From positions 1 to 41,272 of IMG/VR virus record IMGVR_UViG_3300020215_000038: a stretch of DNA of 41,272 bases; one strand, written 5' to 3'. The position numbers and the translations under genes were made by a program. Source of the stretch: a virus. The stretch's first letter is position 1, and the number at the start of each line of letters is the position of its first letter. Below the pieces are notes generated by a model. The model saw only the letters and a list, made by a program, of their open reading frames with translations, was not told the origin of the DNA and ran no database searches. This document shows, piece by piece, positions 5,327-41,272 of the stretch.

Positions 5327-6313
5327 ATGGCAACCATTACGGTTCCCTCGCAAGAAAACGCGAGCATTTTTGAGACCCTCGCCACCCATATCTTCGAGAA
5401 CCACGGCGAAGAGATTGGCAACGCGGCGATCGCCAAGAACTACACGATGATGATGCTGGACCGCAAAGGGTCCAAGAAAATCGTCGACGGCGGTCTGGAT
5501 TTCGCGGAGCCGGTCCTTATCCGTGAGAACTCGAACTTCGGCTTCGGGAATGCCTATAGCCAGATCGACGCTGACTATCAGGACATGACCCGTGAGTTCA
5601 AGTTCGACCCGAAGGTGTATCGGGGGACGTTGGTCATCAATGCTCTGCACGAAGCACAGAACGACGGCCGGTCGGCTATCAAGAAGCTTCTGAAGACGAT
5701 CCGGCTCCAGGCGGACACGACGATCGAAAACGACATCAACGCGGCTCTGTGGACGGCGTCGCCGGCCGCGAACGCGCCCGAGTCGATTCGCTCGATCGTT
5801 TCCGACACCCCCACGACGGGAACCCTGGGCGGCATCACGCGCCTGGGGAACTCCTACGCGCAGAATGGAGCGTATACGACCGCGATCACGGATATCGGTT
5901 CCGAGGCCGGCCTGTCGACGCTCCACGCTGAACGCGCCACGATGGGCGGCGATGCGAAGACGGCTCCGGATATCGCGGTGACCACCCCTATTCTTTGGGG
6001 CGGTCTCTTCGGTTACATGGACAACCTTCGGCGCATCAAGGCCGATGAAGAGGTCGTGAAGCTCGGTTTCGACAATTTCTACGTCGGAACCGCTCTTCTG
6101 GGTCATGACGCTGCATGCCCTGCGAGTCATTTTTACTATCTGAACTCGCGGCATCTGTTCTTCAAGATCCTGAAGAAGGGCAATTTCGTGTTCGAGCCGT
6201 TCTCCCGCAAGGATAACAGCCTGAACTCGACGTCCATCTTCTATCTCTTCTACAACCTCACCACGAACCTGCCGGCGGCCCACAAGGTCCTGACGGCGGT
6301 TTCGACGACCTAA
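5327..6313 (+). CDS. Major capsid protein
   Basis: 328 aa ORF after the scaffold-like gene; position and size; the antisense 329-aa ORF is a GC shadow. Confidence 0.75.
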   Translation: MATITVPSQENASIFETLATHIFENHGEEIGNAAIAKNYTMMMLDRKGSKKIVDGGLDFAEPVLIRENSNFGFGNAYSQIDADYQDMTREFKFDPKVYRGTLVINALHEAQNDGRSAIKKLLKTIRLQADTTIENDINAALWTASPAANAPESIRSIVSDTPTTGTLGGITRLGNSYAQNGAYTTAITDIGSEAGLSTLHAERATMGGDAKTAPDIAVTTPILWGGLFGYMDNLRRIKADEEVVKLGFDNFYVGTALLGHDAACPASHFYYLNSRHLFFKILKKGNFVFEPFSRKDNSLNSTSIFYLFYNLTTNLPAAHKVLTAVSTT

Positions 6314-22567: not shown

Positions 22568-22596
22568 TTGACAAATTGTGGCGGCCGCGCTAAACT
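22568..22596 (+). promoter_or_regulatory. Sigma70-like promoter TTGACA-17-TAAACT
   Basis: TTGACA 22568-22573, 17-nt spacer, TAAACT 22591-22596, immediately after the stop of the upstream gene. Confidence 0.35.
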
Positions 22597-22602
22597 TGCC
22601 TC

Positions 22603-22695
22603 TAGTAAAAACGCCATGAGCGTTGCCTTTCCTCTCTGCCAAGGGGGGTTGGGATTTCAAAGCCGGAGAGCCGCAAACTCTCCGGCTTTTCTTTT
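22603..22695 (+). ncRNA. Candidate ~90-nt sRNA (promoter to terminator) with C/U-rich anti-SD-like single-stranded stretch
   Basis: Hairpin 22610-22624, CCUUUCCUCUCU at 22626-22637, terminator hairpin 22661-22687 plus U-run. Confidence 0.3.
22661..22695 (+). terminator. Rho-independent terminator
   Basis: agccggagag / ccgcaaa / ctctccggct perfect 10-bp stem followed by tttctttt. Confidence 0.85.
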
Positions 22696-22755
22696 AACGT
22701 CTCGTCAGCTCATAAGTTCCAAGTTTAACCTTCAGAGCGGCGAGAACGAACCGTC

Positions 22756-23178: not shown

Positions 23179-24096
23179 ATGCAGAACGACCCGATTTCGC
23201 TCTATCTTTCATTCCTTTCGTCCATTCGCCGCCTAAGCCCCGACGGCGTCCGCAAGAACCGCCTAGCGCTCGGCCGGATGCAGGCCCGGCTCGGCAAGCC
23301 CCTCCTCGAAATCCGCGTCGGCGCCGAGATCACGCAAGCCATCATCGAAGAATCAAAGGTCCGGCGCACCGACTGGAACGGCGGCTATAAAGACGACGGC
23401 CTCCACTTCTGCCACCACCTCGGGGGCCGCATGGTCCGCTTCTACGCCTGGGCCTTCCACGACGGCCTGATCGACAGGAACCCGTATCCGAAGAATCCCT
23501 TCCCGCAGCCGCCGAGGAGGGAAGCCAAATACCTCACCGACGAGCAAATCAAAATCCTTTATTCTTGCGACGCGCTCGAGCTGCGCGACTTCGTCCTGCT
23601 GCGCTTCTTTCTTGATACCGGCCTCCGCGTGGGCCAAGTCGTCGACGTGAAGGTCGAGGACATCGACTTCACCGAGCGCACCGTAAAGGTCTATATCCCC
23701 AAGGTCGACAAGTTCCACCGAGCGCCGTTCACCGAGATCACGCGGCGCTACCTTCTGGATTACCTCGAAATCCGCGGCATCACGACGGGCTATGTTTTCT
23801 CGAATCGTTGGAAAGAGAAGATCACGACGAACGCGATCCGCGACCGCTTTCATGCGATCTCGAAAAAAGTCGGCTTCCGCGTGACGCCGCACATGAAGCG
23901 CCACACCGCCGTCACGATGTGGGTCGAAACGCTCGGCCAAATCCCCGCGATGCAGTTCGCCGGCCACTCGGACCCGGGGATGACGAATCACTACACGCAC
24001 CTGACAGGCAAAAAGAAGGTGAAGATGCAAGAGGCCGTATATAAAGAGAAGGCCCTGGCGCTACAGGGGGCGGGATTTGAGGATAGGAAAAATTAA
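23179..24096 (+). CDS. int: Tyrosine site-specific integrase
   Basis: 305 aa; box I TGLRVGQVVDV, HMKRHTAVT (HxxR), AGHSDPGMTNHYTH with catalytic Tyr context. Confidence 0.9.
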   Translation: MQNDPISLYLSFLSSIRRLSPDGVRKNRLALGRMQARLGKPLLEIRVGAEITQAIIEESKVRRTDWNGGYKDDGLHFCHHLGGRMVRFYAWAFHDGLIDRNPYPKNPFPQPPRREAKYLTDEQIKILYSCDALELRDFVLLRFFLDTGLRVGQVVDVKVEDIDFTERTVKVYIPKVDKFHRAPFTEITRRYLLDYLEIRGITTGYVFSNRWKEKITTNAIRDRFHAISKKVGFRVTPHMKRHTAVTMWVETLGQIPAMQFAGHSDPGMTNHYTHLTGKKKVKMQEAVYKEKALALQGAGFEDRKN

Positions 24097-24106
24097 AAAA
24101 TAGGGG

Positions 24107-24135
24107 TTGACAACAAATGATACATAGTATATATT
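24107..24135 (+). promoter_or_regulatory. Near-consensus sigma70 promoter TTGACA-17-TATATT; would give a leaderless RHH mRNA
   Basis: TTGACA 24107-24112, TATATT 24130-24135; ATG at 24142 is 7 nt after the -10, with no SD in between; overlaps palindrome ATAC-ATA-GTAT. Confidence 0.55.
24120..24135 (+). promoter_or_regulatory. 16-mer atacatagtatatatt (operator/promoter element, copy at early promoter)
   Basis: 15/16 identical to 40003-40018; contains the ATAC-N3-GTAT inverted repeat and the -10. Confidence 0.45.
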
Positions 24136-24141
24136 TGGTAC

Positions 24142-24291
24142 ATGGCATCGACGATCAATCTAAGAGAAGTCCCGGAGGACGTGAAGGCCGAGTTTAAGGC
24201 GGCCTGCGCTCGCCGTGGGGTCACGATGCAAGCGCGTCTTATCGAGCTTATGCGAAAAGACGCTATTGACAACACGAAGCGGCAGAAGTAA
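24142..24291 (+). CDS. 49-aa ribbon-helix-helix (Arc/CopG/MetJ-like) DNA-binding protein
   Basis: Not in ORF track; MASTINLREVPEDVKAEFKAACARRGVTMQARLIELMRKDAIDNTKRQK = beta strand plus two helices typical of RHH. Confidence 0.65.
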   Translation: MASTINLREVPEDVKAEFKAACARRGVTMQARLIELMRKDAIDNTKRQK

Positions 24292-24294
24292 AGT
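24266..24294 (+). promoter_or_regulatory. Second promoter candidate TTGACA-17-TAAAGT inside the 3' end of the RHH gene
   Basis: 9-mer ttgacaaca repeated at 24107-24115 and 24266-24274; -10-like taaagt 24289-24294. Confidence 0.3.
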
Positions 24295-24300
24295 GATCGG

Positions 24301-24559
24301 CGTGAAGAATCGCAAACAGGGCAAACTGAACAAACCTTTCGCCTTTGCCGGGCGGGGGATGCAATTCTGCAAAAGGCCTGCCCTGGCCTGCGGTTCTCTT
24401 CCGTCCGGTCTGTTTCAATCCCGTCAGGGCTCTTTCGGCCTCCTTACTTCCTAGCCTTCCCGGTGGTGGCCTCTGGCCTGCCCACCAGTTTGAAGTAGGA
24501 AGCTAACGGAAGACCAAAGAGCCCTGATGGGACCGAAAGGTCCTGTCAGGGCTTTTTTT
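24301..24559 (+). ncRNA. Candidate ~260-nt structured RNA / attenuator leader (long imperfect hairpin 24420-24531 competing with terminator T1)
   Basis: 16-bp helix 24420-24435/24516-24531; nt 24522-24531 alternatively pair in T1; no credible ORF. Confidence 0.45.
24522..24559 (+). terminator. Intrinsic terminator T1 (13-bp stem, GAAA loop, T7)
   Basis: ccctgatgggacc / gaaa / ggtcctgtcaggg then c + ttttttt (24553-24559). Confidence 0.8.
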
Positions 24560-24561
24560 AC

Positions 24562-24595
24562 GCCCCGGCGCCCTTTCGGCGAACCGGGGCTTTTT
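24562..24595 (+). terminator. Intrinsic terminator T2 (gccccgg...ccggggc with inner cgcc/ggcg, T5)
   Basis: Stem 24562-24568/24584-24590, inner 24569-24572/24578-24581, ttttt 24591-24595, directly abutting ATG 24597. Confidence 0.7.
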
Positions 24596-24596
24596 A

Positions 24597-24935
24597 ATGC
24601 TCCAGAAAGGCAGAAGCGAAGTGGAAACAAAGCAAGAGGTTGCGAAGCACACGCCGGGGCCGTGGGAAGCAAGGCAACACGCGCACCGAGCGGATGGTAG
24701 CCATACATCGACGATTGTTTATCAGAAAGATCAATACTCACCGGTGGCCATCGTCGCCTGTCATGTAGAGCTAAACAACGCCGCCCTGATCGCCGCGGCG
24801 CCGGAGCTGTTGGGGGCGTTGAAGGACGCGAAGCGGTGGATTCAACAGGTGCGCGAACAGAACGACGACTACGCCGGAACCGAAATGCCGGAAAAGCTCG
24901 CCGATGTGATCGCCAAAGCCGAGGGCCGGTCATGA
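24597..24935 (+). CDS. Ead/Ea22-like early protein (HTPGPW ... NAALIAAAPELL motif)
   Basis: 112 aa; motif recalled from prophage Ead/Ea22-like proteins; start uncertain (no SD; GTG 24621 is an alternative). Confidence 0.55.
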   Translation: MLQKGRSEVETKQEVAKHTPGPWEARQHAHRADGSHTSTIVYQKDQYSPVAIVACHVELNNAALIAAAPELLGALKDAKRWIQQVREQNDDYAGTEMPEKLADVIAKAEGRS

Positions 24936-40746: not shown

Positions 40747-41272
40747 TGGCAAAGCCCGGCCCGAAGGGACCGTCGAAGTATAGGCCCGAGCTCTGCGATG
40801 AATTGCTCGAGTTTTTCGATATCCCGCACTCCCGCGTCATCAAGACCGTCACGACCGGCAAGGGAGATTTTGGGAAGGTCGAGGAAAAGGAAGTCGCCAA
40901 CGACCTTCCACACTTCGTAACCTTCGCCCAGAAGATCGGCGTAAGTGTCGAGACACTAAACGCTTGGACGAAAACTTACCCTGAATTTTCTGAGGCCTAC
41001 TCAAAGGCGAAGCTGATAAACGAGCGGATGCTTGCCTCGAATGCTCTAAAGGGCCTTTATAACGCGACCTTCGCGATCTTCATGGCCAAAAACAAGTTTG
41101 GATGGAGAGACGAGCAGCACATCAAGGGCGAAGGGGTCGCGCCTCAAATCGTAATCGTTAGGGCCGATGGAAATAAAACTGAAACCCTATCAGGACGGCT
41201 TCATCTTCACCGAAGCTCCGTTCCCGGCAATGGTATCAGCCTGGGGAACGGGGAAGAGCCTGTGTCTGATTC
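40746..41272 (+). CDS. terS: Terminase small subunit (runs off the window end; continues to nt 140 through the circular junction, 179 aa in total)
   Basis: MAKPGPKGPSKYRPELCDELLEFF...FAQKIGVSVETLNAWTKTYPEFSEAYSKAKLINERMLASNALKGLYNATFAIFMAKNKFGWRD is the HTH-type small-terminase pattern; directly upstream of terL. Confidence 0.8.
   Translation, partial: MAKPGPKGPSKYRPELCDELLEFFDIPHSRVIKTVTTGKGDFGKVEEKEVANDLPHFVTFAQKIGVSVETLNAWTKTYPEFSEAYSKAKLINERMLASNALKGLYNATFAIFMAKNKFGWRDEQHIKGEGVAPQIVIVRADGNKTETLSGRLHLHRSSVPGNGISLGNGEEPVSD
41146..41272. repeat. Terminal direct repeat copy 2 (identical to 1-127)
   Basis: Same 127-nt string as window start. Confidence 0.95.

Follow-up and report, generated by a model that had tools for sequence, protein, structure and literature searches.

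A probable phage attachment site that may be built into a conditional transcription terminator and split by integration in a tailed phage

The 41,272-nt stretch of DNA analysed here (IMG/VR record IMGVR_UViG_3300020215_000038, positions 1 to 41,272; hereafter the window) contains a 305-nt gap between a small gene encoding a ribbon-helix-helix (RHH) protein (24142-24291), which follows the integrase gene, and the first early gene, which starts at 24597. It was found that this gap harbors a structured element in which one strand (segment 2) can pair either with an upstream strand (segment 1), closing a long hairpin, or with a downstream strand (segment 3), forming an intrinsic terminator. A tRNA 3' end was also found at the tip of the long hairpin, both in the window and in every related phage. 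The structured stretch is most likely the chromosomal attachment site of the phage (attP), and the probability that this attP is built into a conditional terminator, which would be split by integration, was estimated at roughly one half.

Segment 1 (CCCGTCAGGGCTCTTT, positions 24420-24435, + strand), the putative antiterminator strand on the P side of the presumed crossover, is complementary over 16 bp, with one G-U pair, to segment 2 (AAAGAGCCCTGATGGG, 24516-24531, + strand), the strand shared by the two alternative structures. The helix extends through the inner hairpin (24436-24515, + strand), which consists of a left arm, an apical inverted repeat GGTGG...CCACC and a right arm, up to an apical GGCC-TCT-GGCC hairpin, so that the whole structure comprises approximately 46 pairs and 115 nt. 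The long hairpin (24416-24535) had a folding energy of -65.2 kcal/mol (z -6.8), and none of 200 shuffled sequences was as good. Alternatively, segment 2, a GAAA loop and segment 3 (24542-24557), with a T7 run at 24553-24559, make up terminator 1 (24516-24559, + strand). The hairpin formed by segments 2 and 3 (24516-24560) had an energy of -33.1 kcal/mol (z -8.6) on the + strand compared with -24.2 kcal/mol on the - strand and is followed by the T7 run. Terminator 2 (24562-24595, + strand; -22.1 kcal/mol), composed of a hairpin at 24562-24590 and a T5 run, abuts the first early gene. In both terminators, a G+C-rich stem leads directly into a U-run, as in intrinsic (Rho-independent) terminators. 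The gap, the three segments and the two terminators had been described in a first-pass annotation made by inspection of the sequence, and all of them were recovered at the same positions.

The complementarity of the upstream strand was exceptional. The energy of the segment 1:segment 2 duplex was -30.0 kcal/mol, compared with -16.5 +/- 2.1 kcal/mol for shuffled upstream sequence (0 of 300 as good). Among the eight + strand terminator-like hairpins of the window, terminator 1 alone had a complementary upstream partner, and no such partner was found for any of 66 terminators across 84 unrelated integrase loci.

Relatives of the integrase were found in metagenomic phage contigs, where they constitute a small family with 37-54% identity. 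Besides the window, nine distinct lineages were distinguished (L003, L006/L007, L009, L010, L011, L012, L013, L221 and L222). The ten lineages have a common layout: the integrase gene, in most cases a promoter and a small regulator gene, segment 1, the long hairpin, segment 2, a loop, segment 3, a T-run and early recombination genes. In the relatives, the integrase gene is usually followed by a strong promoter and a gene for a DNA-binding miniprotein of 44-62 aa, which is an RHH, a helix-turn-helix (HTH) or a zinc-ribbon protein; the non-coding gap is approximately 270-540 nt long and often contains a second terminator, and the early genes encode ERF/RecT, YqaJ and Y8K6. Outside the tRNA fragment and the RNA segments, these gaps could not be aligned with one another. 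The sequences of the segments vary by lineage: segment 1 is CCCGTCAGGGC in the window, AACACCGGG in L003, CCCTAGAGGCTGTCT in L010, GCCTTATCGGGG in L011, CCTCAGCGCTTTA in L012, CCTCACCGGAGC in L221 and CCTCAGAGTCTATTT in L222. Throughout, segment 2 is complementary to both segment 1 and segment 3.

A covariance model was built from the window, L006 and L009 only. With this model, the element was found at full length and at the expected coordinates in six further loci: L221 (E 3e-8), L003 (E 9e-7), L012 (E 5e-6), L010 (E 0.009), L011 (E 0.02) and L222 (E 0.09). In the nine + strand rows of the resulting alignment, 93% of the segment 1:segment 2 pairs were standard, with double-sided changes at 10 of the 12 pairs, and 83% of the segment 2:segment 3 pairs were standard, with double-sided changes at 9 of 18. 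In the full alignment of 13 rows, which includes two reverse-strand and two spurious rows, 86.4% of the cells were paired compared with 69.0 +/- 1.5% in shuffled alignments (0 of 500 as high) and 35-53% in slid controls. The mean energy of the segment 1:segment 2 duplex was -20.6 kcal/mol for cognate combinations versus -9.4 kcal/mol for non-cognate ones, and none of 20,000 permutations was as good. When the 5' strand of the terminator was defined blindly, its best partner was segment 1 in every member in which terminator 1 was detected. Thus, the terminator has a mutually exclusive and covarying upstream partner, as is looked for in an attenuator, the signal being weak in L009, L012 and L013 taken singly. 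The first-pass annotation had suggested antiterminator/terminator logic for the 1:2 and 2:3 pairings and had named covariation in homologous phages as a check on it. The alternative pairing turned out to be kept in the nine other lineages with compensating changes.

The presumed core of attP, CCTGCCCACCA (24477-24487, + strand), is identical to the acceptor 3' strand, A73 and CCA of tRNA-Tyr, which the first-pass annotation had overlooked. When 185,579 species genomes were scanned with a pattern consisting of a T-loop followed by CCTGCCCACCA, the matches listed included real tRNA genes from more than 120 genomes of many phyla, mostly tRNA-Tyr(GTA), that end in this block. In the relatives, the tip mostly holds the 3' end of tRNA-Ser. 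L003 and L009 share an identical 20-mer, TTCGAATCCCAGTCTCTCCG, between unrelated flanks, which matches a real tRNA-Ser at 18 of 20 positions (386 real tRNAs in the loci were compared), and the tips of L006, L010 and L221 are variants of it. The tip of L011, GGTTCGAATCCTTCCCTCACCA, had its best match among the same tRNAs in tRNA-Tyr (20 of 22 positions). In L012 and L013, the tip GGTTCGAATCCTCT.CTCTCCGCCA consists of a T-arm-like segment (imperfect in L013), an acceptor 3' strand, G73 and CCA; the tip of L012 also matches the antisense of a plastid trnS region, the sole notable match to Rfam. The tRNA-Ser and tRNA-Tyr 3' ends of the relatives are 15-25 nt long and occupy the same aligned place as the block of the window; both MAFFT and the covariance model aligned GGCCTGCCCACCA of the window with them. 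Short inverted repeats that resemble core-type binding sites flank the tRNA fragment (GAATCC...GGATTC in L003 and GGTGG...CCACC in the window).

No complete tRNA was detected with ARAGORN in the window or in the seven relatives checked. The window thus combines a tyrosine recombinase gene with a nearby tRNA 3' block that is not part of a whole tRNA. A tRNA 3' fragment preserved near a tyrosine integrase gene amid diverging flanks is the classical sign of an attP core. Considering that a tRNA 3' end is present at the hairpin tip in every member, the gap region is most likely attP. A tRNA, transfer-messenger RNA (tmRNA) or permuted tmRNA gene was rejected, because ARAGORN was negative for the window and seven relatives, the Rfam models of tRNA and tmRNA gave no match, and the ends GCCA and ACCA come after non-alanine acceptor strands. 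A minihelix substrate of RNase P was rejected as well, since the left arm provides no 5' acceptor strand. In folded single-strand sites such as integron attC or the attP of CTX-phi, the recombinase boxes and the crossover are located in the stem formed by two arms and the tip is variable. This type of site was also discarded: in the family studied here, it is the tip that holds the conserved segment of host origin, whereas the stem bases vary, and the genome is that of a tailed double-stranded DNA phage.

The integrase (23179-24096, + strand; 305 aa; Pfam Phage_integrase, 6e-24) is a tyrosine recombinase of the Xer-like two-domain type. Its best solved relatives are XerA, XerC and XerD, with which it is colinear from residue ~68; therefore, there is no room for an arm-binding domain. 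An origin of the repeats of segments 1, 2 and 3 as arm-type sites of the integrase was considered unlikely for this reason; they may be sites for another protein instead.

The balance between the two structures was then calculated, state A being the long hairpin including the segment 1:segment 2 helix and state B being the inner hairpin together with the segment 2:segment 3 terminator. In all eight loci computed, the two states were nearly isoenergetic, for example, -62.7 and -63.4 kcal/mol (A and B, respectively) in the window, -52.3 and -50.2 kcal/mol in L006, -44.5 and -44.4 kcal/mol in L011, and -49.1 and -48.8 kcal/mol in L012. The equilibrium probability that segment 2 pairs with segment 1 when the latter is present was 0.96 in the window, 0.84 in L006, 0.82 in L010, 0.79 in L012, 0.58 in L011, 0.44 in L013, 0.08 in L009 and 0.02 in L003. 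Removal of everything to the left of the hairpin tip raised the terminator to a probability of at least 0.83 in all eight loci. State A may be favored further kinetically, because segments 1 and 2 are made before segment 3.

Bistable energies would also be expected of a cis attenuator that responds to a factor independently of integration, with a protein (RHH, HTH or zinc ribbon), a translating ribosome or a metabolite choosing between the 1:2 and 2:3 pairings, an idea akin to that of the first-pass annotation. A small regulator gene usually lies ahead of the element, and in L009 segment 1 (6150-6161) falls within the last codons of an uncalled open reading frame (ORF) for a 61-aa HTH (Cro/XRE-like) protein located past the promoter (5988-6173), so that its translation could occlude the antiterminator strand. 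However, no sensor was recognized: there is no match to a riboswitch, leader or other Rfam family and no conserved leader ORF, the proteins encoded upstream are unrelated across the members, the tRNA fragment is the only strongly conserved sequence of the hairpin and there is no ligand pocket, and in the window the stop codon of the RHH gene is 128 nt upstream of segment 1. An attenuator of this kind is therefore regarded as unlikely.

The annotation had further pointed to riboswitches and to the immunity RNAs of the P4 CI and P1 c4 type. A search of the whole window against Rfam at the gathering threshold gave no match to c4, to a riboswitch or to any other family, and cmscan with E <= 10 of positions 24050-24700 and of seven relatives returned only chance-level look-alikes of small RNAs and terminators, apart from the trnS-antisense match of L012. 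Kinship with either type of RNA thus found no support. Formally, segment 2 does resemble seqB of P4 in being complementary to two direct repeats (segments 1 and 3, as seqB is to seqA and seqC), and in a lysogen it would be supplied from the tRNA promoter. One could imagine that a processed RNA containing segment 2, such as the trailer left 3' of the rebuilt tRNA, pairs with segment 1 of a superinfecting phage and forces termination. However, in such a trailer the terminator hairpin would sequester segment 2, no signs of processing sites were seen, and neither sequence nor structure matches c4 or an Rfam family; an immunity RNA acting in trans is considered highly improbable. It is likely that the input of the switch is the integration state rather than a ligand or a trans-acting RNA.

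Promoter-like sites were scored out of 12 against a sigma-70-type pattern with a threshold of at least 10/12. Only three such sites, at 22568, 24107 and 24266, occur in the whole circular genome. All of them are on the + strand, and the stretch from the terminators to the early genes is devoid of such sites. The site at 24107-24135 (+ strand; TTGACA-17-TATATT, 11/12) is a candidate strong promoter, not noted in the first-pass annotation, that precedes both the small regulator gene and the element. It is conserved: 11/12 sites were found at the equivalent place, just past the integrase gene and before the small gene and segment 1, in L003, L009, L011 and L012, and TTGACA-17-TACACT can be read there in L221. 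The site at 24266-24294 (+ strand; TTGACA-17-TAAAGT, 10/12) had been proposed to start a discrete RNA of ~260 nt. The site itself is present, but it occurs in the window alone and not in the relatives, in which the conserved promoter is the one upstream of the small regulator gene.

On these grounds, the following course of events is proposed. The Xer-like integrase would recombine with a host tRNA-Tyr gene at the hairpin tip. In the circular state, after infection or excision, transcripts from 24107, and perhaps from 24266, would cross the RHH gene and segment 1. The hairpin would zip from its tip, and segment 1 would capture segment 2 before segment 3 exists; as a result, terminator 1 would fail to form, and part of the transcription would reach the early operon. 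Integration would cut the hairpin at the tip. Given the + strand orientation of the tRNA fragment, the left attachment site (attL) would then consist of the 5' part of the host tRNA gene, the core, the right arm, segments 2 and 3, terminator 2 and the early genes, and the right attachment site (attR) of the integrase gene, the promoter, the RHH gene, segment 1, the left arm, the core and host DNA. Integration would thus leave segment 1 and the only early promoter approximately 41 kb away from the segment 2:segment 3 terminator in the prophage. This terminator would always form there, ending the transcript of the rebuilt tRNA-Tyr gene and shielding the promoter-less lytic operon from the strong tRNA promoter, with terminator 2 as a back-up.

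As a more tentative extension, lysogeny might be maintained largely by topology instead of by a classical repressor, with attP separating the single early promoter and the antiterminator strand from the terminator and all lytic genes. Integration into tRNA-Tyr or tRNA-Ser would then mean off and excision would mean on, and the segment 2 trailer might even serve as a trans RNA immunity factor against segment 1 of a superinfecting phage.

Several observations weigh against the split conditional terminator. The strongest caveat is the strand symmetry of the long hairpin. Terminator 1 is clearly a + strand structure, with 16 G-U pairs across the family on the + strand versus 1 on the - strand and summed energies of -185 versus -129 kcal/mol. 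No such bias was found for the long hairpin (17 versus 25 G-U pairs and -397 versus -412 kcal/mol on the + and - strands, respectively), and that of the window folds better on the - strand (-73.0 versus -65.2 kcal/mol). Therefore, there is no visible sign that the long arms are selected as RNA of the + strand; alternatively, they might form a palindrome at the level of DNA or a Watson-Crick double-stranded RNA. In addition, the equilibrium in L003 and L009 favors the terminator in spite of segment 1. No upstream masking partner was found for terminator 2 of the window, which is apparently unconditional; hence, read-through must come about by leakage or through some other factor. Only 11 nt are identical between the window and tRNA-Tyr, and the identity stops short of the T-arm. 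As to the family evidence, the segments were picked by eye, the blind definition of the terminator 5' strand gave z <= -3 only in the window, L003 and L006 (borderline), L013 was missed by the covariance model, and the pair counts lean towards the structure of that model, to which the alignment was fitted. Finally, no integrated copy, with attL and attR, was found in any collection searched, so that the position of the crossover is inferred; the copies found all have the free-phage configuration.

Two other explanations draw on the same strand symmetry. According to the first, the element is a plain attP with fixed terminators that end the rebuilt tRNA and insulate the prophage, and the palindrome, segment 1 included, represents DNA-level sites for binding or synapsis by the recombinase or an accessory protein, without any RNA switch. 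A DNA palindrome would account for the fact that the - strand folds as well or better. The 17-nt motif present as three direct copies and one inverted copy is reminiscent of protein-binding sites, as the short inverted repeats around the tRNA fragment are of core-type sites, and the equilibria of L003 and L009 agree with terminators that are fixed. On the other hand, the Xer-like integrase has no room for an arm-binding domain, the three-segment design is constant among members whose small DNA-binding protein is an RHH, an HTH or a zinc-ribbon protein or is missing, the 5' strand of the terminator stem is always overlapped by segment 1, and near-isoenergetic states in eight loci are not predicted by a DNA site. 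A plain attP is accordingly judged doubtful, and conditional termination is preferred.

According to the second, which could coexist with a split terminator, the ~46-bp hairpin of the circle is a target of RNase III that destabilizes the message of the RHH and integrase genes, as in retroregulation by sib of lambda, and the message becomes stable in the prophage, in which the hairpin is split. A long, near-continuous duplex located downstream of the integrase gene and spanning attP is what such a mechanism needs, and the missing strand bias fits its requirement for Watson-Crick double-stranded RNA. Nevertheless, a strong promoter lies between the integrase gene and the hairpin, which means that the integrase gene is probably off the main transcript; in L010, a distance of 4 kb separates the element from the integrase gene; and the overlap of segment 1 with the terminator strand is left unexplained. 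The probability of sib-like control was consequently rated as quite low.

The location of the element in L010 is informative in another respect. In this contig (5001-10465), moron-like genes for a polysaccharide deacetylase and a formyltransferase lie between the integrase gene and the element 4 kb downstream of it, which follows a promoter-like site and an RHH gene. It may be concluded that the element is tied to the promoter/regulator unit and not to the integrase gene. The first gap past the integrase gene of L010 (6252-6451) retains the right-arm motif GCAAGCTAAC, perhaps as a remnant.

The genome around the element was characterized as follows. Bases 1-127 of the window are identical to bases 41146-41272. 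This 127-nt terminal overlap indicates that the assembly is circular and represents a complete phage genome of ~41.1 kb in its non-integrated form. Terminase is encoded, as in other tailed double-stranded DNA phages, and the + strand carries essentially all of the real genes. The first early gene (24597-24935, + strand) belongs to the Phage_P22_Y8K6 family. ORFs within the gap are only short and unconserved, and a protein-coding gene there, which the annotation had listed as a possible refutation, was rejected. No similar DNA was found among 50,697 phage records, and no close DNA or protein relatives, the integrase included, were found among cultured phages. The gap region is 100% identical in the near-identical copies L001 and L002, which are hence uninformative on population variation.

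Searches of IMG/VR with the window integrase and with the exact 21-mer of segment 1 returned nothing, two family-motif patterns returned the L007 contig alone, and with the integrase alignment as the query the hits were the contigs of L003 and L007 and four distant integrases. The integrase profile found no relative in the 185,579 species genomes, and a metagenome scan returned integrases of just 24-30% identity. The window integrase and early proteins gave no tblastn match in the tRNA loci that had been fetched, mostly tRNA-Tyr. Many of the 24-30% identical integrases (L014, L020, L036, L047, L051, L076 and others) adjoin complete tRNA genes, often tRNA-Val(CAC), as expected for integrated elements. 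Therefore, the broader integrase group targets tRNA genes.

The 49-aa RHH protein (24142-24291, + strand) is encoded by the first gene past the conserved promoter and has a weak FitA-like RHH match under the Pfam cut-off. Its position is occupied in the relatives by an HTH_3, RHH or zinc-ribbon miniprotein. Zinc ribbons (CxxC...CxxC, ~38-56 aa) replace it in L012 (~5935-6051), L221 (~5938-6107) and L222 (3797-3931), the ORFs of L012 and L221 having been read by hand. The RHH protein and its HTH and zinc-ribbon counterparts are plausible small Cro/CI-like regulators, and the statement of the first-pass annotation that the genome contains no recognizable CI/Cro-type repressor could for this reason not be taken as established.

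The 5' part of the gap forms a further hairpin domain (24295-24410, + strand; -51.2 kcal/mol, z -2.6), which is weakly alignable with L006, L010, L011 and L012. It holds partial copies of the presumed core, GGCCTGCCC at 24375 and CTGGCCTGC at 24383, so that the copies at 24375-24391 lie 90-100 nt upstream of the core at 24473-24483. The 9-mer GGCCTGCCC, whose recurrence had been noted before, does occur again at 24475. In L221, an 11-mer of the core, TCGGAACCCTG, is duplicated 73 nt upstream (6217 versus 6290). Upstream copies of the core are restricted to the window and L221 and were rejected as a general feature; they may represent an accessory recombinase site or chance.

In the window, the 5' strand of terminator 2, GCCCCGGCG (24562-24570), has a perfect 9-nt complement at 24652-24660, 81 nt downstream and within the first early gene, maybe by chance. 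In L006, the 5' strand of the second terminator (6199-6234), GCCCTGATTTTAGGCC, opens with GCCCTGAT, as segment 2 does, and its best upstream partner is again segment 1 (z -2.2); in this locus, segment 1 might mask both terminators. The third promoter-like site of the window (TTGACA-17-TAAACT, 22568-22596) is followed after ~65 nt by a clean terminator, CCGGAGAG...CTCTCCGG with a T-run, at ~22659-22695. The product of ~100 nt had a folding energy of -39.4 kcal/mol (z -2.9), and the stretch 22568-22700 could encode a small RNA just upstream of the integrase region.

State-dependent transcription across the attachment site has been described for the integrative and conjugative elements (ICEs) ICEKp1, ICEclc and ICEEc1 (Liu et al., NAR 2026, PMC13023037). 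When ICEKp1 resides at tRNA-Asn, terminator-like stem-loops dampen the read-through that starts at the tRNA promoter, and in the excised form a promoter at the other end reads over attP (PMC13023037). The effect of a terminator-like stem-loop downstream of the tRNA gene is relieved by a 15-bp piece from the opposite side of attP; that this piece pairs with the stem-loop SL3 is a proposal of the authors only (PMC13023037). ICEKp1 is the closest precedent for the element described here, sharing with it insertion at a tRNA 3' end, terminators just inside the element, a far-end promoter reading across attP and a masking piece. The systems differ in that the window is a tailed phage, in which the whole early (lytic) operon would be controlled, whereas in ICEKp1 it is the integrase gene. 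Moreover, the masking strand of the window is the base of a ~46-bp hairpin with the presumed crossover at its tip, and, as far as the sequences show, ten lineages share the design with covarying segments.

The transfer genes of Tn916 are reportedly transcribed in a manner dependent on circularisation (Celli and Trieu-Cuot 1998; Wirachman and Grossman 2024; both cited in PMC13023037), and both Tn916 and ICEclc have promoters that work only in the circle. As would be the case in the window, transcripts gain access to the genes at one end of Tn916 only by crossing the joint of the excised circle, and termination and antitermination tune this. Tn916 is, however, a conjugative transposon without a tRNA target, and it is not known to have an antiterminator hairpin that is split by the joint.

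The sib site of lambda is located wholly on one side of attP and causes RNase III decay of the integrase mRNA that is read by N-modified polymerase. Like the hairpin of the window, sib/tI is an RNA structure downstream of the integrase gene that needs a continuous attP and is separated from the gene by integration, and a single sequence serves as a terminator or as an extended hairpin. The hairpin of the window differs in that it straddles the core and that its output is likely to be read-through into the early genes. Retroregulation by sib is mentioned in PMC5300877.

With the trp leader, T-boxes and riboswitches, the element has in common three segments, mutually exclusive 1:2 and 2:3 helices and a U-run past the 2:3 helix, but it has no leader peptide, tRNA-binding specifier or ligand pocket, and its input is proposed to be the loss of segment 1 through a rearrangement of the DNA. 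In P4, a processed seqB RNA pairs with seqA and seqC and thereby causes termination. P4 CI and c4 of P1/P7 resemble the element in the complementarity of a single segment to two direct repeats of the same leader and in premature termination ahead of the lytic genes. The window differs from both in lacking similarity detectable by Rfam and evidence for a processed trans-acting RNA, and from P4 in that the 1:2 pairing would prevent termination and not cause it. In the mycobacteriophages BPs and Brujita, attP is located inside the repressor gene, and integration removes a degradation tag from the protein (PMC3694055, PMC4557955). There, too, gene expression from integrated phage DNA differs from that of the free form owing to the position of attP; in the window, it would be a non-coding RNA switch and the link between promoter and operon that are cut, not a protein. 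What is new here is the combination of a tailed phage as the host element, the whole early operon as the proposed target, a crossover presumably placed at the tip of an antiterminator hairpin and a covarying design in ten lineages.

The element may be of use for locating attP cores in metagenomic phage genomes and as a design for reporters of the integration state. If the proposed mechanism is true, the idea of a masking sequence across attP would gain a conserved and covarying structural model, and a principle that is known experimentally only for the integrase gene of ICEs (2026) and for Tn916 would be extended to tailed phages and to a whole lytic programme. A temperate phage would then possess a very simple switch, in which recombination halves an RNA hairpin, turning a read-through element into a terminator, and takes the lytic operon off its only promoter.

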